Below, one piece after another: positions 5,730 to 20,192 of a stretch of 64,000 nucleotides of DNA; position 1 is the stretch's first letter; each line of letters opens with the position of its first letter. Both the position numbers and the translations under genes were made by a program. The DNA is from Flavobacteriales bacterium (GTDB lineage: Bacteria > Bacteroidota > Bacteroidia > Flavobacteriales_F > PHOS-HE28). The notes beneath the pieces are model-generated. The model searched no databases. It saw only the letters and a program-made list of their open reading frames with translations, and had not been told where the DNA came from. The stretch covers positions 195,288-259,287 of the forward strand of contig JBIQIX010000004.1 of NCBI GenBank assembly GCA_044507815.1. Direction: 5' to 3'.

Positions 5730-8134
5730 CACGGGTTGGATCTGCCCTGGCCACCAACCACCGTAAAGGTGCGGTGCAGCCTGTGGCCACGGGCATCGGT
5801 CAAAGTTATGCGGTGGGTTCCGTCGGCCGGTGAGAGCGCCATGCGGTGATCGCCCGTGGTGCTGCCGAAGTATTCCCCGTCGAGGTCCCAGAACAGCGTG
5901 GCCCCACCATCGCGGTGTGCCACTTCCACCACCATGTTCCCCCGGCTGCCATCCAGCTGCATGGGAATCAGGATCTTGGAACCCGCTTCGGGATAAAGGA
6001 TTTCCATGGGTGCGTCGTTGTCTTGCGTTCCCTCTTTCCACGGCGGAAGGGGTGCATAAGCTGGGTTCCGCTTGGCGTAATAATGTTCCATGGCGGGTGG
6101 CAATACGAACCACACGCTGGGGCGGCCGCTGCCATTGCCGGTGCGGTACATGCCGGACGGATCGAGCGTTATGCGCCGGTGGTAGGGGCAAACGGGGGAG
6201 CGCATGGCTTGTGGCGGCACCCAGAGCGTATCCGGCGCCGGGCAATCGGCACCTGCACGGTGGCCACTGGCGCGGCAGATCTGCGCGCGCACCATTTCGT
6301 CATAGGGCGGTTCCACCGGCGGGTCCTTGGGCAACAGGTTGAACAGGTCGAAAAGCAACGGTGCGGCAGCCAAGGTGCCGGTCAACCCCGGCCTTCCTTC
6401 GCCGGAGGCGTTGCCGGTCCACACGGCGACGCAATGGCGCGAGGTAAGGCCTATGGCCCAAGCATCGCGGTGCCCGTAGCTGGTGCCGGTCTTCCAGGCG
6501 ATCTGCCTGCCTCCGCTGAAGTGGTTCCAACCCTGTTCATCTGCGGGCCTGGCCACATTGCGCAGGGCTTTCAGGGTGAAGTAGATCGAACTTGCGCTCA
6601 ATGCGGGCGCAGTTTCCAAGGGCACCGCACCGGCATCGGAAGATCCCGGGGATGACAGCACGTGGGGCGGCCGGATGTCGCCTTGGCGGTATGCCATGCC
6701 CAAGCGGCCATAGTGGTTCAATACCCGCCCCATGCTGGCATAGGCGCCGGCCAATTCCCACAGGGTCGATTCCGCGCCGCCCACCACAAGTGACAGGCCG
6801 TAATCGTCGGCACCGCGATTTATGCTGGCCAGCCCGTACGCACGCAGCATCAGCAGGGTGCGCTCCAAGCCGTGGCTGCGCAAGGCGCGCACCATGGGCA
6901 CGTTCAACGAGCGCGACAGGGCCTCCGAGGCCGGTACGGCGCCGCTGTATTGTTCATCATAATTGCGCGGCGAAAATTCATTGTACCGTGTGGGCACATC
7001 GGCCAGCAGCATATCGGGTGCCAGCTCACCGCTCTGCAGCATGTCCGCGTACAAGAAAGGCTTCAATGTGCTGCCCGTGCTTCTTTTGGCCTGCACCAGG
7101 TCCACGCTTCCGGCATGGGTGCCGCCGGCCTGGCCAAGGTTGCCCACGTAGGCCAGCACCTGTCCGGAGTTGACATCCATGATCAGTGCGGCGGCATTGT
7201 GCACCTCATTGGCCGCCAGGCGTGCAGCATAGCGGTCGGCGGCGATGGTGGCGCGGCGCTGGAGGCCGCCGTGCAACGTGGTGCGCACGAGCTTGCCGCG
7301 GTGCCCGGTGGCAGCCAAGGTGGCCAACAGGTGCGGCGCATCGCGGGGGAGTTCCTGTGCCTTTCCCGGCAGCGGCTCCTCCTTGGCCAACGACCATTCC
7401 AGGGTGTCGATCGCATGCACGGCCAACAGGCGGTCCAACAGACGGTCGCGCTTGGTGCGCAGGGCCTCATGGCCTTTGCCGGGGTAGATGGCCGAAGGCG
7501 CGTTGGGCAGGACGGCCAAGGTGGCGCATTCGCTCCAGCCCAGGCTGCTGGCCGGGCGGTGGAAATAGCGCCATGCGGCGGCGTCAACGCCCACCACGTT
7601 GCCGCCGAAAGGGGCGTGCGCGGCAAAGAGCCGGAGAATTTCCTCTTTGTTGAACCGCAGTTCCAGCCGTAGCGCCAGCAGTGCCTCGCGGAGCTTTTCA
7701 CCATAGGTGCGGAGCCGGTTGCCCCGGGCCATGCGCGCCAATTGCATGGTGAGGGTGCTGCCGCCGCTTATTACCCGGCCGGCCTTCCGGTTCTGCAGCC
7801 ACGCCCGCACCAGCGCGCCGGGGCTGATGCCCCAATGCCGCCGAAAGCCGCGGTCCTCGAACTGCACCAGGCATACCGTGAAGCGGGCGGGTACTGCTTC
7901 CGGTGGCGGAAACCGCCATTGGCCATCGGTGGCCACGGTGGCCCCCAGCAACTGCCCGTCCCGGTCCATCAATACCGTGGATGTGGGCGCGGGGAAAAGC
8001 GGGGGCATGGGCCACCAACGCGCCCAGGCCAAAAGGGCCAGCAGTAAGGCGGCTGCCAGCCACCAGCGCCAACGGCGCCACCGGCGCCAATGAAACGCAG
8101 GCAAAAAGGGGGTGCTGCGCAACAGCGGGGCCAT
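5729..8134 (-). CDS. pbpC: Penicillin-binding protein 1C (bifunctional transglycosylase/transpeptidase)
   Basis: GT51 transglycosylase motifs EDRGFRRH and GGSTLTMQLAR are present. The transpeptidase domain has STLKP (SxxK) and KTGT. The C-terminus is PbpC-like. The start was chosen at MAPLLRS (8134) because of the following membrane anchor. Confidence 0.85.
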   Translation of the reverse strand: MAPLLRSTPFLPAFHWRRWRRWRWWLAAALLLALLAWARWWPMPPLFPAPTSTVLMDRDGQLLGATVATDGQWRFPPPEAVPARFTVCLVQFEDRGFRRHWGISPGALVRAWLQNRKAGRVISGGSTLTMQLARMARGNRLRTYGEKLREALLALRLELRFNKEEILRLFAAHAPFGGNVVGVDAAAWRYFHRPASSLGWSECATLAVLPNAPSAIYPGKGHEALRTKRDRLLDRLLAVHAIDTLEWSLAKEEPLPGKAQELPRDAPHLLATLAATGHRGKLVRTTLHGGLQRRATIAADRYAARLAANEVHNAAALIMDVNSGQVLAYVGNLGQAGGTHAGSVDLVQAKRSTGSTLKPFLYADMLQSGELAPDMLLADVPTRYNEFSPRNYDEQYSGAVPASEALSRSLNVPMVRALRSHGLERTLLMLRAYGLASINRGADDYGLSLVVGGAESTLWELAGAYASMGRVLNHYGRLGMAYRQGDIRPPHVLSSPGSSDAGAVPLETAPALSASSIYFTLKALRNVARPADEQGWNHFSGGRQIAWKTGTSYGHRDAWAIGLTSRHCVAVWTGNASGEGRPGLTGTLAAAPLLFDLFNLLPKDPPVEPPYDEMVRAQICRASGHRAGADCPAPDTLWVPPQAMRSPVCPYHRRITLDPSGMYRTGNGSGRPSVWFVLPPAMEHYYAKRNPAYAPLPPWKEGTQDNDAPMEILYPEAGSKILIPMQLDGSRGNMVVEVAHRDGGATLFWDLDGEYFGSTTGDHRMALSPADGTHRITLTDARGHRLHRTFTVVGGQGRSNP

Positions 8135-8229
8135 GGCACAAAGATGGAACGGTGGCCACAGCGCTGCGCGGTCCTTCCGGTGCACCCCAGGGCCTAATTT
8201 TGGCCGGATCTCCAACTCCCCGCTATACC

Positions 8230-9891
8230 ATGCTTCGTTTTCCATTGTTGGCCGCGGCCGTTTGCGCCGCATTCCTGCCGCTGCAGGCCCAAGTATCCGT
8301 CGGTGGCCTGCCGTATTCATTGCGCACCGGTGAAGGATCGAGGGAAGTCCCATTGGTATCGGCGCCTGCGTTCGATGCAGCGGAAGCGGCCCTGCGCGAT
8401 GCACAGCGCGACGCTGCGGGTCTCATGCCCGCGTATTCCCGGATCTTGCCCTTGGATGCCGGCCTGGCCACGGGCCAATGGCTCGGGCTGCCCGATGGCG
8501 GCCGCGTTTGGCGGCTGCGTGTGAAAAGCACGGGTGCCCTGGCCACCGAGCTGTATTTCAGCGATTTCAACCTGCCCGCCACCGCCACCATGCATGTGTA
8601 CACCGAGGACGGCCGGCATGTACTGGGCGGATTCACCGCGGCCAACAACATTCCCGATGGCGATTTTGCCACCAGCCTGTTGCCGGGCGACCGGTGCGTG
8701 ATCGAATACCACGAGCCGGCCCCTGTAATTGGCCAAGGCCGGTTCCGGCTCACCGGCATCGGGCATGCCTACCGCCATGTGGGGGAGGTGCTGGCATCAG
8801 GCGCTTGCCAAGTGGACGTTAATTGCAGCGAGGGCAGCGCATGGCAGGAGCAGCGCGATGCGGTAGTAAGGATCGGCGTGGTGATCGGTGGCTGGGGCTA
8901 CTGGTGCAGCGGCGCCCTGGTGAACAACTTGGCACAGGATTGCAAACCATATTTCCTCACCGCCATGCACTGTTCGGTGGATGAGGGCGTGCATTCCACC
9001 ACGGCCAACTTCAACCAATGGAAATTCTATTTCAACTATGAGCGCTCCGGATGCGGCACCGGTGCCACGCCCAGCAACCGTACCGTCACGGGCTGCGTCA
9101 AGCTCGGTTCCAGCAACGACAATGGCGGCGACAATGGTTCTGATTTCCTTTTGGTGGAAGGCAAGACCGCCATTCCCCACAGCTATTCCCCCTACTGGGC
9201 CGGATGGGATGCCAGCGGTGCGGGCAGCGCCAACGGCGTCGGCATTCATCACCCCGATGGCGACCGCAAAAAGATCAGCACGTACAACACCGCGCTCAGC
9301 TCCACCAATTGGAGCATGGTGCCGAACACGCATTGGAAGGTACGGTGGGCTGCCACCGCGAACGGGCACGGCGTGACCGAGGTCGGTTCATCGGGCTCGG
9401 CCCTGTTCAATTCGGCCAAGCGGGTGGTGGGCACGCTGACCGGGGGCAGCACGAGTTGCACCAACCTGAACGGGTTCGATTATTACGGCAAAATGAGCTA
9501 CCACTGGTCAAGCAACCCCGGTACCGCCACCATGTACCTCAAGAATTTCCTGGATCCGGCCAACACCGGTACCAAGGTCATGGACGGCAGCTATGACCCG
9601 TGTGGCCAGTATGCGGGCATTACCGGGCCGGATCGAACGCTGCCGCACCTGGGCGTGTACCCGAACCCGGCGATGGATATGGCCGTGGTGGAGTTGCCTG
9701 AGGGCGTACGCGGCAACGGGCGGGTGGAGTTGCGCGACATGGCCGGCAGGTTGGTGTTGCAGATGCCGCTGCGTGCGGAGGCTGAGGTCCGCTTGCCTGT
9801 AAGCGCCATGGAGAACGGTGCCTATGTGGTCCAAGTGCTGGTGCAGGAGCGGATCATGGCCACGGCCGCGCTCATTGTGGCGGGCCGGTGA
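8230..9891 (+). CDS. Secreted S1-family trypsin-like serine peptidase (lysyl-endopeptidase-like) with a type-A T9SS C-terminal sorting domain
   Basis: There is a signal peptide (MLRFPLLAAAVCAAFLPLQAQ). The catalytic residues sit in TAMHC (His), DFLLVEG (Asp) and GSSGSALF (Ser). The C-terminal ~80 aa has the beta-sandwich pattern of a T9SS C-terminal domain (YPNPA…ELRDMAGRLV…YVVQV). Confidence 0.75.
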   Translation: MLRFPLLAAAVCAAFLPLQAQVSVGGLPYSLRTGEGSREVPLVSAPAFDAAEAALRDAQRDAAGLMPAYSRILPLDAGLATGQWLGLPDGGRVWRLRVKSTGALATELYFSDFNLPATATMHVYTEDGRHVLGGFTAANNIPDGDFATSLLPGDRCVIEYHEPAPVIGQGRFRLTGIGHAYRHVGEVLASGACQVDVNCSEGSAWQEQRDAVVRIGVVIGGWGYWCSGALVNNLAQDCKPYFLTAMHCSVDEGVHSTTANFNQWKFYFNYERSGCGTGATPSNRTVTGCVKLGSSNDNGGDNGSDFLLVEGKTAIPHSYSPYWAGWDASGAGSANGVGIHHPDGDRKKISTYNTALSSTNWSMVPNTHWKVRWAATANGHGVTEVGSSGSALFNSAKRVVGTLTGGSTSCTNLNGFDYYGKMSYHWSSNPGTATMYLKNFLDPANTGTKVMDGSYDPCGQYAGITGPDRTLPHLGVYPNPAMDMAVVELPEGVRGNGRVELRDMAGRLVLQMPLRAEAEVRLPVSAMENGAYVVQVLVQERIMATAALIVAGR

Positions 9892-10306
9892 CCGGGGTGG
9901 GCCTAGGGGGAGTGAAGGGCATCATTTCCGCCCCGATCATGTGCACCTCCAGTTGCCGTTGGCCGTACTTGGCTCGCAGGGTGGCGCGGCTTTCGCGGCC
10001 TTCTTCCGGCGTGGCAAAACGAAGCACGTCCACATCGGCAACGCCCGCGAAGGGGCCGGGCCATTGCATGCCGGCCCATCGCACCAGGTCCACATCGCTG
10101 AACATGCCCGTGGTGCCGAAGAGCGGTGAGATCTGCACCACAGGGCCATTGCGCCAATTGCCCACCACATAGCTGTAGATGGTGTCCTGCGCCCGGGCCG
10201 GCAATGCGGTGAGGAACAGCAGGAGTACGATCGGGTGCAGCCTGTTCAAAAGAAAAGCCCTCCCGAATGCGGGAAGGCTTTTCAATAGGGTGTGCGGCCG
10301 GTTCAT
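9872..10306 (-). CDS. Hypothetical secreted protein
   Basis: Start is assigned to MNRPHTLLKSLPAFGRAFLL (ATG 10306) because that ATG overlaps the Dps stop codon as ATGA; the same frame is open to an earlier ATG at 10333 (MDAGLLQQR), so the N-terminus is uncertain. The signal-peptide-like stretch NRLHPIVLLLFLTALPARAQ does not begin at the chosen Met (22 residues precede it), so the signal-peptide call itself is tentative. No recognisable domain. The 3' end overlaps the convergent protease gene by 20 nt. Confidence 0.4.
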   Translation of the reverse strand: MNRPHTLLKSLPAFGRAFLLNRLHPIVLLLFLTALPARAQDTIYSYVVGNWRNGPVVQISPLFGTTGMFSDVDLVRWAGMQWPGPFAGVADVDVLRFATPEEGRESRATLRAKYGQRQLEVHMIGAEMMPFTPPRPTPVTGPPQ

Positions 10307-10827
10307 CCTTTGTTGAAGGAGCCCAGCATCCAATGGTGCTTTTCAAGTTGCTCAATGAAGCCCTTCACCATGCGTTCGGTACCTGCATCGGACAGCTCCA
10401 GGGCGAGGTCAACGGTCTCGTACATGTGATCAACCAGGGTCACGTAATCCGCCAGCAGGTTTTTCACCATTTGCGTTGAATCGGGCACGCTGGGATCCTC
10501 TTTCAGGCTGCTGTTCTCCAGGTATTCGGCGAAGGTGCTCAGTGGGCGCTCGTGGAATACACGCACCCGCTCGGCGATCAGGTCAATGTTTTCCTGGGCC
10601 TGGGTGTATTGCAGTTCCAATTGCTCGTGGATGTCGAAGAAGTCGCCACCGGTAACGTTCCAGTGGTAGTTGCGCAACTTTTGGTAGTGCACTTGGTAAT
10701 TGGCCAGCAGTTCGTTCAAGGAGTTTGAAAGTTGCTCGCGTTCCTCGGCATTCCACCGGAGCGAGTGCTTGCGGGTTACTTGGTTCTTCGTGTCCGTTTT
10801 CTTGGTTGCCGATTTCTTTGCTGCCAT
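10303..10827 (-). CDS. dps: Dps (DNA starvation/stationary-phase protection protein, ferritin-like)
   Basis: Dps/ferritin-like four-helix-bundle signature: YQVHYQKLRNYHWNVTGGDFFDIHEQLE…DLIAERV. Start at MAAKKSATKK. Confidence 0.8.
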   Translation of the reverse strand: MAAKKSATKKTDTKNQVTRKHSLRWNAEEREQLSNSLNELLANYQVHYQKLRNYHWNVTGGDFFDIHEQLELQYTQAQENIDLIAERVRVFHERPLSTFAEYLENSSLKEDPSVPDSTQMVKNLLADYVTLVDHMYETVDLALELSDAGTERMVKGFIEQLEKHHWMLGSFNKG

Positions 10828-10864
10828 GTTATAATGAAGGTTTGCGGGTAAACATACCGCAACG

Positions 10865-11242
10865 TCAATTGTTCGCGCGCAGGCGCTTGCGGCGGTGCGC
10901 GCCCACGGCCAGCGGCAACATGGCACCGAACGCGATGAGCAGGCCAAGGAATTCCCGGGATTCCTCGATCACCGGCGTGGTGGCCTTCATTTCCCCCGTG
11001 ATGTCGACAAAGCCACTGTTCGCCCATTGCAGCATGGCGGGCGAAGCGGCCAGCATCCACAGGCCGATGATGCCGGCAACGCCCCACATCCACCAGGCCG
11101 GGTAGCGCCCCAATGCGGCCAATGCACAGCTGACGGCCACCAATGAATACCCCGTGATCCAGATCATCGGGTCGGGATCGTTCCATTGTAACGCCGCGAA
11201 CAACAGGAAGACGAGGGTAAGTATGGCGTACAGGATCTTCAT
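10865..11242 (-). CDS. Small multi-pass membrane protein (TMEM220-like)
   Basis: Four predicted transmembrane segments, ending in a basic C-terminus. Confidence 0.5.
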   Translation of the reverse strand: MKILYAILTLVFLLFAALQWNDPDPMIWITGYSLVAVSCALAALGRYPAWWMWGVAGIIGLWMLAASPAMLQWANSGFVDITGEMKATTPVIEESREFLGLLIAFGAMLPLAVGAHRRKRLRANN

Positions 11243-11278
11243 GCAGCTAAGTTCATGTTTTCCGTGGACCGCAGTGCA

Positions 11279-13591
11279 TTAGAATTCAATGCGGTAGCTC
11301 AAATTGGGGATCAACCCCAGTTGGTTCTTCGCCACCACCTTTCCTTGGCGTGCATCCCAATAATGGAAGGCCACGTTCTGTTGGTTGGTAACATTCTGAA
11401 GGTCCAGCGCCCATAGGCCGGTATGCCCCTTACGGTCCTTTTTCAGGTACACCCGCAGGTCCAGGCGGAAATAGGCGGGCAGCTGCTCCCATTCGGACTG
11501 CCCCGCAAAAACCACCTCGCCATTGATGCCGGTGTATGCGGGCAGCGGTGGGTCCCAACCGCCGCCCATGGTGTTCACCCTTCCACTGATGCCCCAGGTG
11601 CGCACGCGGTCCTCCTTTTGCTTCCTGAACTCTTTTCCGCCCAAGAGGTTGCCGATGTAGTTGTTGTTCCAGCGGGTGCCTTCGGTATGGCCGTGCATGG
11701 AGTAAGCGCTGTTGAACAAAGAAAGGTTGGCGCAGTAGAAAAAGCCGGTCGCGAAGCGATGATCGATGCTGGCCTCCACACCCTGGTTCGTGGCGGTGCC
11801 GTTGGCTATGAGGGGAAACGCGAATTGCTCATTCCACAGGTTGACGATGGCCAGGTTGTTGACCGCGGCCCACCAGGCCGCAACGGGCAAAGCGGTGATG
11901 TGCTGATGGTACACTTCCGCATGCAGCACCAAGCGGTCGGCCACGGGGTGGTCATACCCGAGCACGACGTCCAACGAGCGGGACGGGCCGATGGCCTGCT
12001 GCGCGAAGCCATCGCCTCTTGTGGCGAAGGATTGCCATTGCGGCCATTGGGACCTGGTGCCGGCGGCCAATGCGAGCGCGCGTCCTTGGCGCATCCGCCA
12101 AGCAAGTTGCGCACGTGGCTCGGCCAACAATTCCCGCGTGCCGGTGAAATAGGGGAGGCCAAGGCCGGCCCCGATTTCGAGGTGTTCGGTCAGCGTCCAC
12201 CGGCCATGCGCCCACGGACGGAAGGTCCAGGCCGAGGTATCAGGGTCCAGCGGGGTGTAGAGCTGCCGTTCCAGTGCCGTTGCGCCAAGGGCATACCGGA
12301 AGCGTGCGCCCACGGCACCATCCCATTGCACCGCGCCGGAGAGCTTCCGTTCGTTGAGCGCCGCGCGCTCTTGGCCGATCGTCCGGTAATCATCGGCCAA
12401 TTGTTGCTCGTCCCGCACTTGGTCGATCGCTGATGCGCCCAACGCGGCGGAGAAGCTGCCGCGCCGGCCCACGGGCACGCGTATCCTGGCGCCCACCGCG
12501 CCCATACGCGAGCTGTAATCGATGTTCCGGCTGTCCTTGTCCACCTCCCACTGGCTGGTGTCATGCACCGCTTTGAACACGTTGCTGCTGTTGCCACCCA
12601 GGCCGAACAAATGCCATTCGCCGCGCTTGCCCGCCGGTAGCGCCACATGGAAGCTAAGATCTTGGTAGGTGATATGTTCATCGCCGAAATCCACTCCCAA
12701 GCTGCTGAGCAGGCCCACGGTGGAGTAGCGGTAATTGGCCAAGTATGAGGAGCGCCCGCCCTGGGCGATGGGCCCCTCGGTGGCCAGATCAAGGCCGAGC
12801 AGGCCGGCCTGCACAGTCCATTCCTGCTTTTCTTGGTTTCCTTTTCGTAGCCGCATATCCAAAATGCCGCCCAAGGCGTTGTCCCGCTCCATCGGCAGCA
12901 CGCCGGTCAACAGTTGCGAAGGCCCCAGCATTTGTGCGCTGAGCAGGGTCACCCCGCCGCCGCTTAACGTGGGCAGGTCGGTGGCTGTACCGGCGTTGCC
13001 CGTATGGTTCGGGTTCACGATCTCCACGCCTTCGAGCAGCCAAGTGTTCGCGTTGGGCGAATTGCCGCGGATGCTGAGGTGGTTGGCCTCATCGTTGGTG
13101 GTGGCCACCCCGGGGATTGCGCTTACCAACCGGGCCGGGTCGAAGAAGGTGGCGGCCCACCGCAGGCTTTGTTCCACGGTGAAGGGCTGTACCCCAAGGA
13201 GCGACGGTCTTTCGCGGGCCAGGGCACTTATCGTAACGCTGCCCAGGTGCCCCGAGGATAGGTCCAGCTCGATGCGCTGCACATGCTGCTTGCCCGCGCG
13301 CAGCCACAGTTCGGGCACTTCAAGCGTGTCGTGGCCCACGGCCGTGACACGCAGGGCGTAATGCCCCACGGGTATGGCACTAATGCGGAAATGGCCGCTG
13401 CTGTCCGTGGTGGCCGTCAGGTGCGGGTTGCCGGGCAACAAGGCCAGCGATGCGCCGGGCAAGGGCTCCAGCGTTTGGGCGGCAACCACCTGCCCGGTCA
13501 GGGTGGCCATGGGCGGTTGGGCCATGGCCAGTTGGGAGATGAGGCAACCGATGGCCATTGTTGCCGCCACCCTTGCCAAAGAGTTAACCAT
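11279..13591 (-). CDS. TonB-dependent receptor with an N-terminal carboxypeptidase-regulatory-like domain
   Basis: A signal peptide is followed by a CarbopepD_reg-like domain (TLTGQVV…PGASL…TDSSGHFRI), a plug region and a long beta-barrel ending in a terminal aromatic residue (…SYRIEF). Confidence 0.75.
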   Translation of the reverse strand: MVNSLARVAATMAIGCLISQLAMAQPPMATLTGQVVAAQTLEPLPGASLALLPGNPHLTATTDSSGHFRISAIPVGHYALRVTAVGHDTLEVPELWLRAGKQHVQRIELDLSSGHLGSVTISALARERPSLLGVQPFTVEQSLRWAATFFDPARLVSAIPGVATTNDEANHLSIRGNSPNANTWLLEGVEIVNPNHTGNAGTATDLPTLSGGGVTLLSAQMLGPSQLLTGVLPMERDNALGGILDMRLRKGNQEKQEWTVQAGLLGLDLATEGPIAQGGRSSYLANYRYSTVGLLSSLGVDFGDEHITYQDLSFHVALPAGKRGEWHLFGLGGNSSNVFKAVHDTSQWEVDKDSRNIDYSSRMGAVGARIRVPVGRRGSFSAALGASAIDQVRDEQQLADDYRTIGQERAALNERKLSGAVQWDGAVGARFRYALGATALERQLYTPLDPDTSAWTFRPWAHGRWTLTEHLEIGAGLGLPYFTGTRELLAEPRAQLAWRMRQGRALALAAGTRSQWPQWQSFATRGDGFAQQAIGPSRSLDVVLGYDHPVADRLVLHAEVYHQHITALPVAAWWAAVNNLAIVNLWNEQFAFPLIANGTATNQGVEASIDHRFATGFFYCANLSLFNSAYSMHGHTEGTRWNNNYIGNLLGGKEFRKQKEDRVRTWGISGRVNTMGGGWDPPLPAYTGINGEVVFAGQSEWEQLPAYFRLDLRVYLKKDRKGHTGLWALDLQNVTNQQNVAFHYWDARQGKVVAKNQLGLIPNLSYRIEF

Positions 13592-13652
13592 GCCACGATG
13601 TTAAGCATCGCCCGCGATCCATGGTTTCCGCCTGGACCGCAAGCGTTGCCGC

Positions 13653-16130
13653 TCAAGGTGATCCTTTCGCTTGGAACGGCACCTCCACGGTAATGCTGAT
13701 GTTGCGCCCCATGTTCTGGATGCCGCTCCGCCCCGTTGGATTGTCCGGGTAATTATCGAAATACTTCAAGCGGCTGAGGTTGTTTTGGTAAACCCGGTCG
13801 GCCAGGTTGGTGCCCAGCATGGTGAAGGTGAGCACAGTACGGCCCTTGCGGTCCACAATATCTCCGCCGATGCCCGCATCAAAAAGGTGATAGCCCGGCG
13901 TATATGTTTCCGTGCCGTAGGCCGCGAAGAATTTGCCTTGCGCCGCATGTACCTGCAGCCCGGCCTTGATGAAGAGATTGGCCACGGCACCGGCTTTTTT
14001 CTTCCACGTATAGCGCAATTCGCTGTACCCATGCAAGGGCGGGATCATGGGCAGGTACCGGACGCTGTCGGGCACGGTAGTGCCACCGGTACCGAGGTTG
14101 ACGGCCTGCACGTAGGAGATGGAATTGCCAAGATGCAGCCCTGGCAGCAGGTGCAGATCGATGTAGGCTTCGCCTCCGGCAAGCTGCGCCCTGGTCTGCC
14201 TGTACTGGAACACCGGTAGGGTCATGCCACCCGCGGAAAACAAGGAATCGCCGCCATGCATCGCGCCCAACTTTTCATTGTAGCTGTAGTTGTTGATCCG
14301 GTTGGTGAACAGTTCGATGCTGAAGGTGGCCTTGGTGCCGGTCATGTACGCGCCAACGTCGGCCTGGAGGTTCCTTTCCGGCTTCAGCGCGGCATTGCCC
14401 AACTGCATCAGTCCCTCGCCGGCATGCAGGCCGTTGGCGGTAAGCTCGGCCACGCCCGGGGCGCGGAAGCCATGGCCCAGATTGGCCTTCAGCGTAGTGG
14501 TGCTGCTCAGGTGCCAAGCTGCGCCCAAACTGGCCGCCGTGCCGGTGAAACGGGCGTCAAGCGCAGGAAAGACCTCATGTGCGTGGGCATGGCTTTGATC
14601 CACGGCCGCGGGAAATCCCTTGCCAGCATCTTCGACCTCAAACAGTTGCGCAGCGTGAAAATCCCGCGCATCCAACCGAAGGCCGCCCGATACATCCAGT
14701 GCGCCCCAGGTTTTCTTGGCGTGCAGGAACAGCCCGGCATCCAACAAATGATAACTGGGGATCAGGAATTCGGTGCCTTTCGTTGCCGTGTTGTTCTGGT
14801 ACATGCCGTTCAGCCCCCAGGTTGTTTCCCACCCCCCGCGATCGGGCAGGTTGTGCTTTATTCCATAGGTATAGGTATCGAGCACCAGGTACAACGCCGG
14901 GATGGAGCGGTGTTCCGGATAGTCGAATTCACGGCGCTCGCTTCTTTGGAGGCCGAGGTCCACGTTCAGCATTCCGTCGCCTGCCTTCACTCCGGCACTG
15001 GCCAAGGCATGGTAGCGTTGTATACGCTGGTGGGGTGTGCCGATGCGGTAGGAATTCAGGTCCGTGGCATCGGCTACCTCCCACTCCGCGCCTTCATCAT
15101 CCAATGGCTTCATGAATTTGCGCGAGGTGCTGTCGCGCATGCCGTCGGGCACTTCGAGCTGCTTATGGTGCGCGCCCATGCGCAACCTCGCGAAGCCCCA
15201 CGAGCCGTTCATGCCCAAGTAGGCGTTCATGTCCTGCTGCGCGTATTTGGTGCCAAGCACGCGTCCGTCCATGGCATTGCGGTAATTGGCGGCAACCTGG
15301 CCCGAAGCGCGCAGGCCGTACACCAGGTTATCCTTGTTGGCATCGAAGTGGGCCGATGAGGCCATTGCCTTGTTGTTGGTGTTGTAGGCAACCAGCGCAT
15401 GGCCGCGTTGCATGCCGGCTGGCACCGGGGGCGGTGGAAGCAGGTTCACCACACCGGCCAGGGCATCGGAACCATAGGAAAGACTGGCCGGGCCCTTGAT
15501 CACTTCCACGCGGTCGATCAGGAAGGGGTCGATCTCCACGCCATGCTCGGCTCCCCATTGCTGGTCCTCCAGCCGCACCCCGTCGAACAGGGTGAGCACA
15601 CGCGTTCCGCCAAGCCCCCTGATGTACGGCTTGGAGACACCGGGCCCTGAGCTGACCTCGCTTATCCCGGGCACTTTGGCCAAGGCCGAAACAATGTTCA
15701 GTGCAGCATTGGAGCGCAGAAAATCACGGTCCACAAGGGCCATTGGCACAGGCTGGCGGTGCTGCTCGGTTGCCCGTGCCGCTCCGGTCACCACAACTTC
15801 ATGCATTTCAAGCACCGTGGGTGTTAGCACGAAATCCCTGATCGGGGTGGAACCCAGGTCCACTGTTTCCACCAACGTCGTGTAACCTGTCATGCTTACG
15901 CGCACCAAGGCCTTGATGGTGGGCAGGTTGCCAAGGAGGAAGGTGCCGTCGTCCTTGGTTATCGTGCCGGTGTGCAATTCAGGGAAATACACGTGCGCTC
16001 CGGGAATGGGCAGCAGGGTGCCGTGCTCGCGCACGGTGCCCGAGAAAGTGGTGTGGGCGTTGGTATCCGCGGATATCGCCCATGTGGCCTGAAGGAATGT
16101 GAACAGTGTGATCAAACAGCGCTGTGGCAT
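13653..16130 (-). CDS. TonB-dependent receptor (plug plus beta-barrel) with an N-terminal carboxypeptidase-regulatory-like domain
   Basis: A CarbopepD_reg-like domain (FSGTVREHGTLLPIPGAHVYF) is followed by plug motifs (IRGLGGTRVLTLFDGVRLEDQQWGAEHG, DRVEVIKGPASLSYGSDALAGVVNL). Confidence 0.75.
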   Translation of the reverse strand: MPQRCLITLFTFLQATWAISADTNAHTTFSGTVREHGTLLPIPGAHVYFPELHTGTITKDDGTFLLGNLPTIKALVRVSMTGYTTLVETVDLGSTPIRDFVLTPTVLEMHEVVVTGAARATEQHRQPVPMALVDRDFLRSNAALNIVSALAKVPGISEVSSGPGVSKPYIRGLGGTRVLTLFDGVRLEDQQWGAEHGVEIDPFLIDRVEVIKGPASLSYGSDALAGVVNLLPPPPVPAGMQRGHALVAYNTNNKAMASSAHFDANKDNLVYGLRASGQVAANYRNAMDGRVLGTKYAQQDMNAYLGMNGSWGFARLRMGAHHKQLEVPDGMRDSTSRKFMKPLDDEGAEWEVADATDLNSYRIGTPHQRIQRYHALASAGVKAGDGMLNVDLGLQRSERREFDYPEHRSIPALYLVLDTYTYGIKHNLPDRGGWETTWGLNGMYQNNTATKGTEFLIPSYHLLDAGLFLHAKKTWGALDVSGGLRLDARDFHAAQLFEVEDAGKGFPAAVDQSHAHAHEVFPALDARFTGTAASLGAAWHLSSTTTLKANLGHGFRAPGVAELTANGLHAGEGLMQLGNAALKPERNLQADVGAYMTGTKATFSIELFTNRINNYSYNEKLGAMHGGDSLFSAGGMTLPVFQYRQTRAQLAGGEAYIDLHLLPGLHLGNSISYVQAVNLGTGGTTVPDSVRYLPMIPPLHGYSELRYTWKKKAGAVANLFIKAGLQVHAAQGKFFAAYGTETYTPGYHLFDAGIGGDIVDRKGRTVLTFTMLGTNLADRVYQNNLSRLKYFDNYPDNPTGRSGIQNMGRNISITVEVPFQAKGSP

Positions 16131-16226
16131 TGTACATGCTATGGCCGGCAGCGGGCGCATGCCCGTGCTGCACGGCGTGGTAAACCTTGGTTGACGAAGA
16201 ATGGCCAGCGATCGCGGCCGGGGAAT

Positions 16227-16532
16227 TCAAATCGTCGGAGGGCCGCGCAGCTTCGGGGCTTCCTGCTTCAAGACACGTACATGGGCCGTGGTGGGCACAG
16301 CTTGATCAACCCTGGCCAAGGTCTCCGGAAGCGGGGCCATGGCGAGTGGCAGATCAAGAGTGGGCACCGGCGCCTCACAGATCGGGCAGTGGAAATCCGA
16401 ATGCAGGGCCGGGGTGGCCACATGGCGGCCCAAATGCGACCGCCCCTCCATGCAATGGTGGAACAGCGTGCGCGGCAATGCCATGGAAAGCAGCACCGCG
16501 AGCATGAACCATGCAGAAAGGGAGCGTTTCAT
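16227..16532 (-). CDS. Small secreted Cys/His-motif protein (putative metal-binding), function unknown
   Basis: A signal peptide (MKRSLSAWFMLAVLLSMALP) is followed by HHCMEGRSHLGRH…HSDFHCPICE. It lies between the flippase gene and the first TonB-receptor gene on the same strand. No family assignment. Confidence 0.3.
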   Translation of the reverse strand: MKRSLSAWFMLAVLLSMALPRTLFHHCMEGRSHLGRHVATPALHSDFHCPICEAPVPTLDLPLAMAPLPETLARVDQAVPTTAHVRVLKQEAPKLRGPPTI

Positions 16533-16599
16533 CGGAAAGGGGAAGGCGATCCCCGCCTTGGGCAAAGATCGTTGTTTCCGGCCTGCTGTTGGTGCAGCA

Positions 16600-17853
16600 T
16601 CAGCGCGGGCGTGCCAGCAAGCGGCCCAAGCGCTGCACATCCGCGCTGCTCGGCCATAGCTCTGTGAAGCGGGTGCGTGTAATGCGCATGAACATCACGG
16701 TCTGGTACAAGGCGCTGGCCCCATAGGCCAGGCTGGCGCAAAGCGCTGCGCCCACCAGGCCGAACCGGGGCACCAGCAGCACGCCTGCGACGATGGTAAC
16801 GACCATGCCCAGGCCCGAACCGGCCACATTGTGCACATTACGCGCCGTGCCACTGAAAAAGTGGCTCCATGCCTGCGTGGCGGACATGCTGAGGATGCCG
16901 GGTGCCAACAGCGCGATCAACGGGGTGATGCCCACCACTTCGGGCCCGAACAACCATTGGAACAGGGTGGAGGGCAGCACCAGCAATGCCAGCACGATCG
17001 CGCTGGCGCTCGCCATGGATGTTTTCAGGAAGGTGAGGGTGAGCAGGCGTTGTTCCTCGGCCTGTGCCGTATTGCTGATCTTGCTGTAGAGTACCAGCGC
17101 CAGGCTTTTCGGCACCAGCCAGGCCCCCTCAGCCAGCTGGTTGGCCACGGTGTACACGCCCAACTGGGCCGTGCCCTTGAACTTTTCGATCAGCCAATAG
17201 GCAAGGCGGTAGTTGATCAATTGCATGCCGTTGGCCATTTGTATATAGCTGCCTTGGCGGAACAACAGCTTCAGCACATTCACGCCGGGGTCGTCCTGCA
17301 CGGCCACGCGCTTGCGTATGGAAAGCGCTCCCAGAAGCAGCGAGCTCAGGGCGGATGCATAGGCCCCGGCCACGTATGCCATGGCGCTCGCACCCGGTTG
17401 GAACGCCAGCCAAGTGAATACGCCCACGAGCATGACCGCCTGCACCACCGCGATCACGTTGTTCGTCCTGATCCGTTGCTGCCCTACGAGAATGTTGAGG
17501 TGCACGGCGTTAATGCCTTGCAAAAAGGCCAACACGGCAACGTGCAACGCATAGCCCTGGGGCACTAAGTTGAACAGGAATACCACCAGGTATCCGGCCA
17601 CCCCGGTGATCAAGGCCCATAGGTAACTGGGCCTGAGCAACCGGCCGAGCGCTACGCGCGGTGCGAGGTACACCAAGGCGCTACCGGCCACCAGGTCCAT
17701 GCCCAGGCGCACCAGACTGATGCCTAACACCACCAGGCCGATCACGCCCAGTCCCTCGGCCCCAAGGCGGTGCCCGCCCACCACGGCCACCAACAAGCCC
17801 ATCGCTGTTATGATGATGCGCGCCAGGATGGTGCCGGAGATCACTTTCAGCAT
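16600..17853 (-). CDS. Polysaccharide biosynthesis protein / Wzx-like oligosaccharide flippase (MOP superfamily)
   Basis: About 12 predicted transmembrane segments, the typical length (417 aa) and an N-terminal MLKVISGTILARIIITAMGLL motif region. Confidence 0.7.
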   Translation of the reverse strand: MLKVISGTILARIIITAMGLLVAVVGGHRLGAEGLGVIGLVVLGISLVRLGMDLVAGSALVYLAPRVALGRLLRPSYLWALITGVAGYLVVFLFNLVPQGYALHVAVLAFLQGINAVHLNILVGQQRIRTNNVIAVVQAVMLVGVFTWLAFQPGASAMAYVAGAYASALSSLLLGALSIRKRVAVQDDPGVNVLKLLFRQGSYIQMANGMQLINYRLAYWLIEKFKGTAQLGVYTVANQLAEGAWLVPKSLALVLYSKISNTAQAEEQRLLTLTFLKTSMASASAIVLALLVLPSTLFQWLFGPEVVGITPLIALLAPGILSMSATQAWSHFFSGTARNVHNVAGSGLGMVVTIVAGVLLVPRFGLVGAALCASLAYGASALYQTVMFMRITRTRFTELWPSSADVQRLGRLLARPR

Positions 17854-19005
17854 CTAGGCAGGCAGCACGCGTTGGTAAACCGCATCGAATTGCCGGGCCA
17901 CGGCAATGGCACTGAAGCGTTGCCCAATGCTGTTGCGTATGGCAGCTGGCCCGTACCGGTGATGTTCCGCTGCCATGCTGATCATGGCCTGCGCCAACGC
18001 GTTGTTGTTGCCCACCGGCACCAATATGCCATTTGCCGGGGTGATAAAAGCCTCTGGGCCGCCGCAACGCGTGGCGATCACGGGCTTGCCGCTGGCCAGT
18101 GCCTCGCCGGTGACCACGCTGAACGTTTCAACGTTGCTGTTGACGATCACCGAGCCGGCGCGCGCCATCATGGGCATTACCCCGGCCTGGGGCAGCCGAC
18201 CGTGCCAATGAACCACATCGCCCAGGTCCAACTCTTGGGCCAGGCGGTGCAGCATTTCACGGTCAGGTCCGCCACCGATCACCTCAAGTTTCAGGTCGTG
18301 CCCCTGCTTCCGCGCATTGGCCAGGGCGTGCAGCACACCGGAGATGTTCTTGATGCCGTCCACCAGGTCACCCACTACCAAGAATTGGTTGGAGGGGCCG
18401 GGGGCGGGCAGGGGCAGGTCCAAGCCGGGCACCACGTTGGGCACGATGCTCATTTCCTTGCCAAGCCCATGGCCTTCCATGGCCGCGGCCAGATGCTGGC
18501 TTACCGCCGTGGCAGCGGCGGCCTGCCGCAGCAGGAAACGGTCGAAATAACGCGCCGCACCGGATTTGGCCCGCCACCGGCCATTCAGGAAAACACTGCT
18601 TTGCTCACTGGCTATGAAGGGTACTCCCCATTTCCGGGCCAGCAGCCAGGCCATGTACACGCTTCGCGTAAGGATGTGGGCATGCACCAATTCCGGTTTG
18701 CCGCGCTCGCGCACCAAACGAGCGGTTCCCCTGGCCATGGCCTGTTGGTAACGCCGGTAGTTGATCGCTTTGCGCAAGGGCAGCACCGGACTTAGGCTTG
18801 GCCGGTAATAGCAGTGCAATTCCCATGCACCATCGGCAGTGTCCAGTTCCTCGCGGAACATGAGCGGCAATTCGGGCACAGGTGAGGCATGCACTACGCT
18901 CAACCGGTGCAACTGCGCCACGGCCAGCATTTGCTTGCGGATGAAATCGCCCAACTGCGGATCGGGCAGCCCCGGATACCATTTGGGCAAGGCAAGTACA
19001 TGCAT
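17854..19005 (-). CDS. Glycosyltransferase, GT4/GT1 family
   Basis: The C-terminal GT-B donor-binding region contains EALASGKPVIATRCGGPEAFI. The start was chosen at MHVLALPKWYP (19005) so that the gene does not overlap the tRNA-His. Confidence 0.75.
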   Translation of the reverse strand: MHVLALPKWYPGLPDPQLGDFIRKQMLAVAQLHRLSVVHASPVPELPLMFREELDTADGAWELHCYYRPSLSPVLPLRKAINYRRYQQAMARGTARLVRERGKPELVHAHILTRSVYMAWLLARKWGVPFIASEQSSVFLNGRWRAKSGAARYFDRFLLRQAAAATAVSQHLAAAMEGHGLGKEMSIVPNVVPGLDLPLPAPGPSNQFLVVGDLVDGIKNISGVLHALANARKQGHDLKLEVIGGGPDREMLHRLAQELDLGDVVHWHGRLPQAGVMPMMARAGSVIVNSNVETFSVVTGEALASGKPVIATRCGGPEAFITPANGILVPVGNNNALAQAMISMAAEHHRYGPAAIRNSIGQRFSAIAVARQFDAVYQRVLPA

Positions 19006-19079
19006 GCAGCCGCAAAGTAACGTGGTCTGCCCATGCCGATTATATTTGCGGCCCGTTTGGCGGCATGCCGACGGTCCAT

Positions 19080-19156
19080 GGTGGGTGTAGCTCAGCTGGT
19101 TAGAGCGTCGGATTGTGATTCCGAAGGTCGTCGGTTCGAGCCCGATCTCCCACCCC
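19080..19156 (+). tRNA. tRNA-His (anticodon GTG)
   Basis: Cloverleaf structure: acceptor GTGGGTG/CTCCCAC, D-arm AGCTCAGCTGGTTAGAGCG, anticodon stem TCGGA/TCCGA with loop TTGTGAT, T-arm GTCGG-TTCGAGC-CCGAT. The extra 5' G(-1) typical of tRNA-His is present. Confidence 0.85.
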
Positions 19157-19162
19157 CGGTAC

Positions 19163-19190
19163 AGCAGAAGGCCCTTTCGGGCCTTCTGCT
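19163..19190. terminator. Perfect 12-bp stem-loop between tRNA-His and the convergent CDF gene
   Basis: agcagaaggccc-tttc-gggccttctgct. There is no strong T-tract. Confidence 0.4.
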
Positions 19191-19199
19191 CGTTAGGGC

Positions 19200-20192
19200 C
19201 TAGCCCTCGGCCGTGTGCTTTTTGTCCTTCAGCACGCGGTCCAGCGTCCACGGGATCTTGCGCTTGAATGGCGCTTCGCGCACCGGGCAATCGAAGATCT
19301 GGCAAATGGTGCATGATGTGGGCGGGACACAGGGGTCCATGTGGATGAAGAACTCCACCTGCCGCCCCGAGGAGTCGCGGACCAGGTCGGCCAATTCAGA
19401 GATCTCGTGATGGCCGGCCTCCAGGGTGAAATACCAGGGAAGTGTTACATGTGCATCGATGTGGAGCGTGCTACCGTACTTGATCACCCTGAAGTTGTGC
19501 ATGTCTATCCATGCCGCCTTGCGATGCTCCTCGATGATCCGCACCAGGTCACCTGCCACGGCCATGTCCGTTTCATCCATGATCCCGCCCACGCTGCGGC
19601 GCACCATGTTGGCCCCTTGCCAAATGATGTAGGCGGCGAAGCCCACGGCGAACAGGCTATCGAGGCCGTGTATGCCGGTGAGCCAGATGGCGGCCAGCCC
19701 CAGCAGCAGGGCCGCCGTGGTCCAAGCATCGGAAAGCAGGTGCACGCCCCCCGCCTCCATGGTGAATGAGTGCGTGCGCCGGCCCCTTGAGCGCAACAGC
19801 ATGCCCATGCCGAGATTCACCAGGCCCGTGAGGCCGATGAGCAAAATGCCATCCGGGATATTGGAGACCACGTTCCCATGGATCCAGGCCATGACCGCGC
19901 GGTAAATGATCACCAGGCCCGCCAGCGCCACCATGGACCCTTCCAGCATGGCGCTGATGAACTCCACTTTTCCATGGCCATAAGGGTGCTCGCGGTCCTT
20001 TGGCTTGGCGGCCAGCACCAGGCTGTACAGCGCGAAACCACCTGCCACCACGTTCACGATGCTCTCCAGCGCGTCGCTCAGGATGGCGTTGCTGCCCGTT
20101 ACCCGCCAAGCGATGAATTTCACCGCCATCAATCCCACGCCCACTGCCAGGGCCACGGCTTGCAGGCGCACATGGGCACGGGCTTGGGCCAT
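19200..20192 (-). CDS. Cation diffusion facilitator family divalent-metal efflux transporter
   Basis: Six predicted transmembrane segments (signature SNAILSDALESIVNV) and a cytoplasmic C-terminal domain with a Cys-rich tail (CVPPTSCTICQIFDCP). Confidence 0.8.
   Translation of the reverse strand: MAQARAHVRLQAVALAVGVGLMAVKFIAWRVTGSNAILSDALESIVNVVAGGFALYSLVLAAKPKDREHPYGHGKVEFISAMLEGSMVALAGLVIIYRAVMAWIHGNVVSNIPDGILLIGLTGLVNLGMGMLLRSRGRRTHSFTMEAGGVHLLSDAWTTAALLLGLAAIWLTGIHGLDSLFAVGFAAYIIWQGANMVRRSVGGIMDETDMAVAGDLVRIIEEHRKAAWIDMHNFRVIKYGSTLHIDAHVTLPWYFTLEAGHHEISELADLVRDSSGRQVEFFIHMDPCVPPTSCTICQIFDCPVREAPFKRKIPWTLDRVLKDKKHTAEG

Follow-up and report, generated by a model that had tools for sequence, protein, structure and literature searches.

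Gene content of the locus

The window (the whole stretch of 64,000 nucleotides that was analysed) comes from a high-GC, Cryomorphaceae-like member of the Flavobacteriales and carries, between positions 9872 and 19005, a row of genes encoding a GT4 glycosyltransferase, a flippase, a small Cys/His protein, two outer-membrane proteins of TonB-transporter type (TBDR1 and TBDR2), a TMEM220-family protein, Dps and a small secreted protein (Table 1). The flippase ATG abuts the GT4 stop codon, and the gaps between successive genes from GT4 to dps are 0, 67, 66, 61, 36 and 37 nt. The same-strand row is therefore real, and a preliminary description of it made from the sequence is partly confirmed: all the ORFs it gave lie on the minus strand, with the coordinates and families it assigned. 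It counted nine genes in the interval, but there are eight, the ninth being a CDF transporter beyond tRNA-His; the tRNA does bound the row, but on the plus strand, opposite to the genes. Nor is the block unusual, as was claimed, since eight same-strand genes with short gaps are ordinary for bacteria. The interpretation attached to the row is partly supported, as discussed below.

Table 1. Coordinates and supporting evidence for the genes and nucleic acid features of the row
Feature	Positions	Strand	Evidence or context
Small secreted protein, 144 aa from overlapping ATG	9872..10306	-	Five database homologues
Intrinsic-terminator-like 14-bp hairpin, upstream A-tract, downstream UUUUCUUUU	10249..10283	-	19 nt after dps stop
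dps, 174 aa	10303..10827	-	PF00210, E 8.9e-25
Promoter-like box TATGTTTA	10849..10856	-	21 nt upstream of dps ATG
TMEM220-family four-helix membrane protein, 125 aa	10865..11242	-	PF15071, 73 bits (cut-off 27)
TBDR2, divergent TonB-transporter-like outer-membrane protein, 770 aa	11279..13591	-	Pfam: only CarboxypepD_reg
Promoter-like -7 box TAACATCG, leaderless type	13596..13603	-	4 nt upstream of TBDR2 ATG
TBDR1, TonB-dependent transporter, 835 aa	13653..16160	-	CarbopepD_reg, Plug and barrel domains
GC-rich hairpin GGCCGCGATCGCTGGCC then ATTCTTCGTC, candidate attenuator	16203..16219	-	8 nt after small-ORF stop
Putative CruR/CutF-like leader ORF (small Cys/His protein), 101 aa	16227..16532	-	Export signal, HHC, CPIC, 43-residue spacer, RGPP
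Promoter-like -7 box GATCTTTG	16563..16570	-	30 nt upstream of small-ORF ATG
MOP/Wzx-like flippase, 417 aa	16600..17853	-	PF13440, 28.5 bits (cut-off 23)
GT4 glycosyltransferase, 383 aa	17854..19005	-	PF00534, E 3.7e-27; PF13439
tRNA-His(GTG)	19080..19157	+	ARAGORN; Rfam RF00005, 64.7 bits
CDF transporter	19200-20192	-	Past tRNA-His

The GT4 start at 19005 agrees with the 383-aa gene call of a relative (L001). Alternative starts exist for TBDR1 (ATG at 16130) and for the secreted ORF (in-frame TTG at 10249-10247, giving 125 aa), whose 3' end overlaps by 20 nt a convergent T9SS-tail gene ending at 9891. NCBIfam Dps models match the window Dps below their cut-offs. TBDR2 belongs to a family with 1858 relatives, and its AlphaFold2 model combines a beta-sandwich and a barrel (pLDDT 70-85) with a plug below 45; TonB-dependent transporters made up all 50 among the Foldseek matches listed (best E 2e-13), and the model thus indicates that TBDR2 has the TonB-transporter fold.

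Modules with separate histories

A synteny survey, in which about 90 related loci were compared with the window, argues that five transcription units, evolving independently, sit side by side in the interval as a mosaic, a reading that, taken jointly with that of the small protein as a CruR/CutF-type leader (see below), we consider probable. The units would be GT4-flippase; a self-contained cassette of two genes, in which TBDR1 is under the control of an exported leader peptide of 101 aa; TBDR2-TMEM220, a pair of ancient linkage; dps, provided with a promoter and a terminator of its own; and the small secreted protein. Only TBDR2-TMEM220 is deeply conserved among the five. In 56 of 77 loci TMEM220 is the gene immediately after TBDR2 (median gap about 8 nt), and a TAnn(A/T)TCG box is found at most 16 nt from the TBDR2 ATG in 49 of 75 loci, down to 47% protein identity; gene order across the survey points to an old conserved pair. 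GT4 and the flippase are about 1.6 kb apart in many relatives.

The preliminary description had proposed a single iron acquisition and sequestration operon. That the eight genes form one co-transcribed iron or metal operon of this kind, with translational coupling between Dps and the secreted protein, now appears very improbable. All of them do share a strand with gaps of 0-67 nt, and the order GT4, flippase, TBDR2-TMEM220, secreted ORF is kept across a family-level clade. However, small ORF plus TBDR1, on the one hand, and dps, on the other, come and go independently among relatives: the former occurs at this site only in the window's closest relatives and is also found in unrelated contexts (divergent from pfkA in L090, L093, L094 and L002), and the latter is present at this site in some relatives and missing in six. 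In other relatives the cassette slot is occupied by a gene for the copper-binding protein MbnP, and in L021 by a divergent small-ORF copy with the same 43-residue spacing. As far as the comparative evidence reaches, the block splits into unrelated units, an outcome that the preliminary description had named as speaking against its proposal.

Shared transcription is likewise not supported, given the separate promoter-like -7 boxes, assigned by motif throughout, which precede the small ORF, TBDR2 and dps and, in most relatives, also the secreted ORF. The box GATCTTTG is conserved in the window, L001 and L010, with the sequence directly after the flippase stop diverged, and distant small-ORF orthologues have a perfect TAnnTTTG 5-6 nt upstream of the ATG; the dps box or a similar one (TACCTTTA) lies 24-33 nt upstream of dps in L007, L010, L008 and L052. 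A strong terminator-like hairpin 3' of dps also argues against a single operon. Some read-through transcription across modules may nevertheless occur: no promoter-like box was found to separate the secreted ORF from dps in this lineage, so that read-through from dps would be required there for the secreted ORF, which favours the operon in part. The link to iron is not supported: a search with an E. coli-type pattern found no Fur box, nothing else pointing to iron was found, and it is copper to which the small protein's known relatives respond. GT4 and the flippase show no connection to metals, and what remains of the proposed metal unit is the small metal-motif protein and TBDR1, not the rest of the row.

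dps and the secreted ORF

The dps TGA (10305-10303) overlaps the first ATG of the secreted ORF (10306-10304) in the sequence ggATGAacc, as first described. The secreted ORF itself is conserved, with further homologues in related loci found by tblastn, so that its absence from relatives, named beforehand as an outcome that would count against the reading, is not observed; its predicted structure, proposed as a check, has a pLDDT of 62 in AlphaFold2 and gave no fold match. The overlap, in contrast, is something that the window shares with a single near-identical sister lineage (L007/L010). At least eight other relatives have 80-500 nt and a promoter-like box between dps and the secreted ORF, and in distant relatives the neighbours of the secreted ORF are rpsP and peptidase M1, dps being absent from the vicinity. 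The comparison therefore points to recent compaction in one lineage and not to a conserved functional coupling of Dps and the secreted protein; of the coupling originally suggested, the overlap is what stands.

The hairpin after dps folds with a dG of -30.3 kcal/mol (z -3.8), and none of 200 shuffled sequences folds as well. L007 has the same hairpin apart from one change in the loop, while the 18-nt spacer ahead of it has diverged by about 50%. The hairpin, absent from the preliminary description, lies inside codons 8-20 of the secreted ORF when this is started at the ATG.

It is possible, though we rather doubt it, that the secreted ORF really begins at the ATG that overlaps the dps stop, in which case re-initiating ribosomes would cross the hairpin and suppress termination, and expression would depend on dps. 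The ATGA is in frame with no stop codon in the window, L007 and L010, the length of the spacer is unchanged despite its divergence, and the TTG sits in a poor initiation context, within the 3' arm of the hairpin and the U-tract; the missing promoter box would fit as well. Every other homologue, however, starts at the signal peptide, as the distant ones do directly, and the dps codons GGA-TGA create the ATG automatically, which only two independent lineages have in common. The extra 19 codons encode the hairpin, so that their apparent conservation is explained by RNA structure, and the sole between-lineage change in the hairpin falls in the loop.

A family of small Cys/His proteins

Of particular interest is the small Cys/His protein, in which HHC occupies residues 25-27, CPIC 49-52 and RGPP 96-99, with two more residues before the stop. 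A profile search gave no family match above threshold for the window protein (11.5 bits on PF11162, cut-off 23.7). Its family has 38 representatives among 1.84 billion proteins, and those members that carry a name are without exception annotated as "hypothetical protein" and come from metagenome-assembled genomes of Flavobacteriales or Bacteroidota. P20, H25, C52 and R96-G97-P98-P99 are invariant, 36 of 37 members have a spacing of exactly 43 between CxxC and RGPP, and 33 of 37 end 2-3 residues after RGPP; the 43 residues vary in sequence and not in length. Pfam DUF2946 (PF11162) is matched by 10 of 30 members (best E 3.2e-6), in alignments that extend to the C-terminal end of the profile. Since the window protein falls below the PF11162 cut-off, DUF2946 membership rests on motif architecture and sub-threshold family matches. 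On this basis the protein looks like an unannotated Flavobacteriales version of the CruR/CutF (DUF2946) metal-sensing ribosome-arrest leader peptides.

A TBDR1 homologue follows the small ORF on the same strand in 11 of 12 loci, with identities of 50-85% (32% in L097 and 26% in L021), and TBDR1 is the presumed target of regulation. Its nearest NCBIfam match is TonB-hemin (TIGR01785, 149 bits, below cut-off) and its best sequence match of solved structure is ZnuD (4rdr, E 1.6e-23), whereas TIGR01778 (OprC-type copper receptor) gives only 49.5 bits; TBDR1 is thus closer to ZnuD and heme receptors than to the OprC-type copper receptor. With ZnuD, the Neisseria meningitidis zinc/heme transporter (PDB 4rdr), it shares the plug and 22-strand barrel, but it is far under the NCBIfam ZnuD threshold (83 versus 950 bits), bears an N-terminal CarboxypepD_reg domain typical of Bacteroidota, and has a His-rich loop (HAHAH) not conserved outside the window clade. 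No conserved Cys or Met cluster was found in TBDR1, so that copper is only a candidate for the metal.

A hairpin begins 1-8 nt 3' of the small-ORF stop in all ten independent loci, with a perfect 7-bp stem in L001 and L010; individual z scores are weak or modest (-0.2 to -3.4).

A putative metal-sensing arrest leader

CruR (Bp2923) of Bordetella pertussis is a DUF2946/PF11162 copper-responsive upstream ORF heading cruR-bfrG-bp2921, defined by an export signal, CXXC, RAPP three residues from the end, a 45-residue spacing held within 1-2 residues, a first position in the operon and a downstream TonB-dependent transporter (Roy et al. 2022, PMC9426467). The small protein resembles CruR in being exported, in its CxxC and C-terminal Arg-(Ala/Gly)-Pro-Pro 2-3 residues from the stop, in the fixed spacer of about 43-45 residues between them, in being the first gene of a unit with the transporter gene directly next, and in the structured intergenic region. 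It differs in having RGPP instead of RAPP, a spacing of exactly 43 instead of 45 +/- 2, an additional invariant HHC motif, 101 instead of 145 aa, an intergenic region of 66-96 nt (100-200 nt in other family members) instead of 162 nt, no PepSY_TM third gene, and a Bacteroidota host with -7 box-type, often leaderless promoters; the window sequence is below the Pfam threshold, and by analogy the metal and direction of regulation are predicted. CutF (Rhodobacter capsulatus, DUF2946, cutFOG) is likewise an exported Cys/His-rich sensor peptide with a C-terminal proline stalling motif and a stem-loop before the regulated gene, but it has CxxxC and PPP, and it controls a multicopper oxidase (detoxification) rather than an uptake receptor; copper induces its stall (bioRxiv 10.1101/2025.02.05.636593). 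According to the accessible part of Fujiwara et al. (2025, EMBO J, PMC12992588), RAPP and RGPP are robust arrest cores, and signal-peptide upstream ORFs of this type precede TonB receptor genes across Gram-negative bacteria, a class that the small protein fits exactly; the survey is generic, and that part of it does not contain the HHC/CxxC ligands and the exact 43-residue ruler.

By this analogy, the leader would combine an export signal, His/Cys ligands (HHC, H-CxxC-E), the 43-residue ruler and RGPP two codons before the stop. Its N-terminus would be exported co-translationally and the ribosome would stall at RGPP, its P and A sites occupied by the two Pro codons, at the point where the CxxC, 43 residues back, would just have emerged from the exit tunnel and translocon. 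Copper or another thiophilic metal, once bound, may then alter stall duration, and the post-stop hairpin or terminator-like element, or Rho, would set TBDR1 output; uptake receptor logic would have TBDR1 off when metal is present. With its start about 22 nt from the predicted P-site, the hairpin of the window may be out of reach for a stalled ribosome.

The conserved HHC and H-CxxC-E ligand sets, the export signal and the strict adjacency to the receptor gene would equally suit a periplasmic or membrane-anchored metallochaperone or TBDR1 accessory subunit in which RGPP is incidental, and DUF2946 proteins have long been annotated as periplasmic. We consider this unlikely, since a CxxC-RGPP stretch fixed in length and not in sequence is the trait of a ruler and not of a folded domain, and since RGPP, a motif that proteomes strongly avoid unless it serves arrest (Fujiwara et al. 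2025), is kept without change at a distance of 2-3 residues from the stop. One protein could play both roles. As a putative arrest leader, the small protein would place a family annotated so far only as "hypothetical protein" in a class that is itself already known.

A candidate metal-sensing leader ORF upstream of a TonB-type receptor gene

The DUF2946 family includes two characterised proteins, CruR of Bordetella pertussis and CutF of Rhodobacter capsulatus (PMC9426467; bioRxiv 10.1101/2025.02.05.636593). CruR is an exported upstream ORF with a CXXC motif and, three residues from its end, a RAPP motif; the two motifs lie 45 residues apart, more than 2000 homologues keep this distance to within 1-2 residues, and the ORF is the first gene of an operon that also contains the TonB-dependent transporter gene bfrG (Roy et al. 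2022, PMC9426467). When the nascent chain senses copper, the arrest is relieved and Rho-dependent termination follows; CruR homologues are listed from Proteobacteria and a few other phyla, with Bacteroidetes not among them (Roy et al. 2022, PMC9426467). In CutF, copper induces the stall, and a stem-loop ahead of cutO melts as a result (bioRxiv 10.1101/2025.02.05.636593). A more recent study describes RAPP and RGPP as the most robust arrest cores, places the CruR stall at two proline codons in the P and A sites, and reports that, across the Gram-negative bacteria, TonB receptor genes are preceded by upstream ORFs that encode a signal peptide and have RAPP or RGPP at their end (Fujiwara et al. 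2025, PMC12992588).

The 101-residue Cys/His protein encoded upstream of TBDR1, one of two TonB-type receptor genes in the window, is probably a new, so far unannotated Bacteroidota member of this known kind of arrest-peptide system. A word-indexed search retrieved three relatives of the small protein, and a profile search of 1.84 billion representatives retrieved 38; the metagenome scan used an alignment of a 9-sequence subset. The named relatives all carry the label 'hypothetical protein' and come from metagenome-assembled genomes of Flavobacteriales or Bacteroidota. The family alignment reads, in order, as a hydrophobic export signal, LPRTLFHHC, H-CxxC-E, a non-conserved stretch and an invariant C-terminal RGPP. 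By inspection the window protein has a basic amino terminus followed by a 13-residue hydrophobic core (MKRS-LSAWFMLAVLLSMAL-PRT), as expected of an export signal, and this hydrophobic stretch is conserved across the family alignment (A4). The putative metal-binding motif is C49-P-I-C52 in the window, and CxxC is present in 36 of the 37 short family members, usually as H-C-x-x-C-E. The window protein ends R96-G97-P98-P99, T-I, stop; RGPP is found in every one of the 37 members and lies 2-3 residues from the stop codon in 33. The spacing between CxxC and RGPP is exactly 43 residues in 36 of the 37, across a spacer of non-conserved sequence, the single exception being a mis-picked second CxxC; the distance is likewise 43 residues in a divergent copy in the related locus L021. 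A fixed distance between the two motifs is also a feature of DUF2946, where it is 45 residues plus or minus 1-2.

With 11.5 bits (E 0.51), the window protein stays below the cut-off of 23.7 bits set for the Pfam model of DUF2946 (PF11162). The model matches 10 of 30 family members, at best with E 3.2e-6; in a re-scan, six of ten members matched with scores of 12-19 bits, and in five of the six the alignment extended to the C-terminal end of the model. The NCBIfam family 'HYC_CC_PP' was considered as a home for the protein and dropped, as no NCBIfam match appeared even at E up to 10. No other credible ORF with a C-terminal RGPP or RAPP was found in the window. The small protein has every testable feature of the CruR/CutF class except a Pfam score above threshold and, because of these features, its most likely role is that of a leader for TBDR1 that senses metal and stalls the ribosome.

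The candidate leader ORF and TBDR1 form a cassette

Among the related genome loci compared with the window (L001 to L097), the small ORF is followed by a same-strand TBDR1 homologue in 11 of the 12 that have enough downstream sequence. The receptors in these cassettes are mostly 50-85% identical to TBDR1, falling to 32% in L097 and 26% in L021. The exception, L096, holds a decayed cassette with RGPG in place of RGPP and the greater part of the receptor missing; at 2318-3037 of that locus the leader ORF runs into a fragment matching only TBDR1 residues 739-833. In four loci (L090, L093, L094 and L002) the cassette is divergent from pfkA, and it is therefore a self-contained unit. Its downstream partners in other loci are YkuD or nothing, with no PepSY_TM or chaperone gene among them.

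The -7 promoter box of Bacteroidota is TAnnTTTG, and a perfect or near-perfect copy lies 5-6 nt before the small-ORF ATG in the distant loci L002, L093, L094 and L097. Boxes placed 4-6 nt upstream suggest leaderless or near-leaderless mRNAs, both for the leader ORF in these distant loci and for TBDR2, the second, putative receptor gene. At the other end of the ORF, a GC-rich hairpin starts 1-8 nt past the stop codon in all ten independent loci, with T-rich runs after it in several of the ten. The window hairpin is GGCCGCGATCGCTGGCC, followed by ATTCTTCGTC, and its counterparts in L001 and L010 have a 7-bp stem without mismatch; the z scores of the hairpins are individually modest (-0.2 to -3.4).

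The receptor and the candidate metal

TBDR1 matches the Plug (PF07715, 86 bits) and 22-strand barrel (PF00593, 95 bits) models above threshold, as a TonB-dependent transporter should, and reaches none of the NCBIfam subfamily cut-offs (TonB-hemin, 149 versus 317). It is nearest to ZnuD (PDB 4rdr, E 1.6e-23) and to heme receptors rather than to OprC; an OprC-type copper receptor was set aside, the match to TIGR01778 being weak. No conserved Cys or Cys cluster was found in mature TBDR1, and its HAHAH loop is confined to the window clade. Since the receptor is ZnuD/heme-like and has no conserved Cys cluster, the candidate metal is not assigned to copper, for which an MbnP-family gene in the same chromosomal slot of relatives gives circumstantial support.

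TBDR1 has two in-frame ATGs 30 nt apart (16130-16160). In L001 the gene callers chose the second, which yields a protein of 825 aa. The stretch from one ATG to the other contains three nucleotide differences, two of them synonymous, so the first is weakly favored.

Gene content of the row

The minus-strand row at 9872-19005 was checked by ORF listing and family scans, and the gene identities in the preliminary description proved correct. The row holds eight genes rather than the nine counted there; the next minus-strand gene, a CDF transporter, sits past tRNA-His.

Features of the row in window coordinates
Feature	Position	Strand	Basis or remark
GT4 glycosyltransferase	17854-19005	-	ORF listing and family scan
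MOP/Wzx-like flippase	16600-17853	-	ATG abuts GT4 stop
Small Cys/His protein, 101 aa	16227-16532	-	ORF listing
TBDR1	13653-16160	-	CarbopepD_reg, Plug and barrel domains
TBDR2	11279-13591	-	CarboxypepD_reg the sole Pfam domain
TMEM220-family four-helix protein	10865-11242	-	Family scan
Dps	10303-10827	-	PF00210
Secreted ORF, 144 codons	9872-10306	-	ORF listing
tRNA-His	19080-19157	+	Bounds the row on the opposite strand

The host genome is that of a high-GC member of the Flavobacteriales. The closest public contig comes from a Cryomorphaceae metagenome-assembled genome, with a TBDR2 that is 88% identical, and an identical TBDR2 is recorded on an NCBI contig. GT4, the flippase and Dps are an ordinary part of the row. 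Dps, a DNA-binding ferritin-like protein, matches the four-helix domain model PF00210 at 87.7 bits (cut-off 24.5), has by inspection the Dps-type ferroxidase ligands (...YHWNV...DIHEQLE...IDLIAER...), and matches the NCBIfam Dps equivalogs below their cut-off (89 versus 170). Between the CDF transporter stop and tRNA-His, at 19158-19200, lies a GC-rich inverted repeat (gcagaaggccc...gggccttctgc) that looks like a bidirectional terminator.

One operon or several units

The row had been proposed to be a single unit for the acquisition and sequestration of iron or another metal. Synteny was assessed by tblastn with every protein of the window as query; the targets were 80 genome loci retrieved by a TBDR2 profile and further contigs reached through other homologues. 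Gene content and order are not conserved together, as a single co-regulated metal operon would imply; the TBDR2-TMEM220 pair alone is deeply conserved. The cassette is present in two of the 15 loci that have both flippase and TBDR2, namely L010 and, in a very divergent version, L021, and in the remaining relatives the site is empty or occupied by other genes. Similarly, dps is absent between TMEM220 and the secreted ORF in six loci (L012, L013, L017, L018, L020 and L022), and GT4 and the flippase are about 1.6 kb apart in many relatives. Promoter-like TATGTTTA or TACCTTTA elements occur 24-33 nt upstream of dps, and a conserved promoter-like GATCTTTG lies within the spacer between flippase and small ORF; as motifs, these elements and the TBDR2 box described below support independent transcription of the units. 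With respect to iron, the whole window has no match to the E. coli-type 19-mer Fur box at up to three mismatches. When the intergenic regions were scanned for inverted repeats, nothing but short GC palindromes emerged, which lacked support, and a comparison of 9000-20500 with Rfam (E up to 0.1) gave tRNA-His alone, with no riboswitch or known leader. Taken together, synteny, the promoter-like boxes and the Fur-box search do not support one iron acquisition and sequestration operon.

The TBDR2-TMEM220 pair (10865-13603) is, by its conservation, an old two-gene module. Of 77 loci, 56 have TMEM220 directly downstream of TBDR2, as do 34 of the 37 in which TBDR2 is at least 45% identical, with a median gap of about 8 nt; these loci (L010-L089) span Flavobacteriales and some Saprospiraceae. 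A TAnn(A/T)TCG box is found no more than 16 nt from the TBDR2 ATG in 49 of 75 loci, and in the window it reads TAACATCG, at 13603-13596 and 4 nt upstream. TBDR2, a divergent TonB-transporter-like protein, has no Pfam Plug or barrel match and a weak match to the plug region of TIGR01782 (E 1e-4). Its AlphaFold2 model is confident for a beta-sandwich and a barrel, with a plug of pLDDT below 45, and the 50 Foldseek matches listed are all TonB-dependent transporters (TM-scores 0.45-0.55).

The site between flippase and TBDR2 is a variable slot among relatives. An MbnP-family copper-binding protein gene occupies it in L011 (7571-8323, minus strand) and L016 (7250-8071, minus strand), accompanied by a conserved ORF of about 316 aa for which no family match was found. 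In L021 (3382-9829) the slot contains a very divergent CruR-like ORF with the 43-residue spacing, its receptor and a second, convergent receptor.

The junction of dps and the secreted ORF

The dps TGA does overlap an ATG, in the sequence ggATGAacc, as the preliminary description had stated; the arrangement that it read as coupling of Dps to a secreted protein is a compaction restricted to one lineage. A 14-bp hairpin, flanked by an A-tract and UUUUCUUUU, lies 19 nt past the dps stop, with a predicted energy of -30.3 kcal/mol and a z score of -3.8 (0 of 200 shuffles fold as well). It falls within codons 8-20 of the ATG-started secreted ORF, so that a terminator-like element intervenes. The overlap is real but lineage-specific, because the compact junction is seen only in the window and one near-identical sister lineage (L007/L010), between which the 18-nt spacer before the hairpin is about 50% diverged and the hairpin differs in its loop alone, and because GGATGA arises automatically from the dps codons GGA-TGA.

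To judge from its homologues, the secreted ORF is a real gene: there are five in the databases, down to 48% identity, and further ones were found by tblastn in related genomes. Its start in the window may be the ATG or an in-frame TTG (10249-10247) at the end of the U-tract, and the sequence is compatible with both. The TTG would yield a canonical signal peptide, MNRLHPIVLLLFLTALPARA/QD, and distant homologues begin straight at the signal peptide. In L003-L006 the neighbors of the ORF are rpsP on one side and a peptidase M1 gene on the other, and dps is not in the vicinity. Within the window's clade, most relatives have 80-500 nt between the ORF and the preceding gene, and most have a conserved cccATCTTTGCa element, which resembles the Bacteroidota -7 box, 20-30 nt before the ATG. 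No separate promoter-like box for the ORF was seen in the window's lineage, so its expression there probably needs some read-through from dps. At 9872-9891 the last 20 nt of the ORF overlap the 3' end of a convergent plus-strand gene (7903-9891) whose product has a T9SS C-terminal sorting domain (PF18962), and this convergent arrangement is conserved in relatives.

Implications

A wider reading, which as a whole we consider unlikely, joins these observations into a distinct arrest-peptide branch. In it, the HHC/CxxC-43-RGPP family may be a mechanistically distinct metal-sensing branch that uses leaderless or near-leaderless translation, in a phylum where initiation does not depend on Shine-Dalgarno sequences, and it may act through the terminator-like hairpin, placed at the leading edge of the stalled ribosome. 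The metal sensed may be other than copper, zinc being an example in view of the additional His ligands and of a receptor that resembles ZnuD. The slot between flippase and TBDR2 may swap alternative metal-uptake modules, a CruR-like ORF with its receptor here and MbnP in relatives.

The case shows that, in high-GC Bacteroidota, several promoters of the leaderless type can be concealed within a same-strand row whose gaps are short, so operon calls based only on gaps are unreliable in these genomes. In place of a speculative iron operon, our analysis offers a regulatory model that can be tested, for a gene whose only annotation in Flavobacteriales is 'hypothetical protein'. The exact 43-residue spacing is a very clean natural ruler, with which one could examine how metal binding in the periplasm is relayed to the peptidyl-transferase center. 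If the leader stalls as predicted, nascent-chain metal sensing of the CruR/CutF type would be extended to the Bacteroidota.
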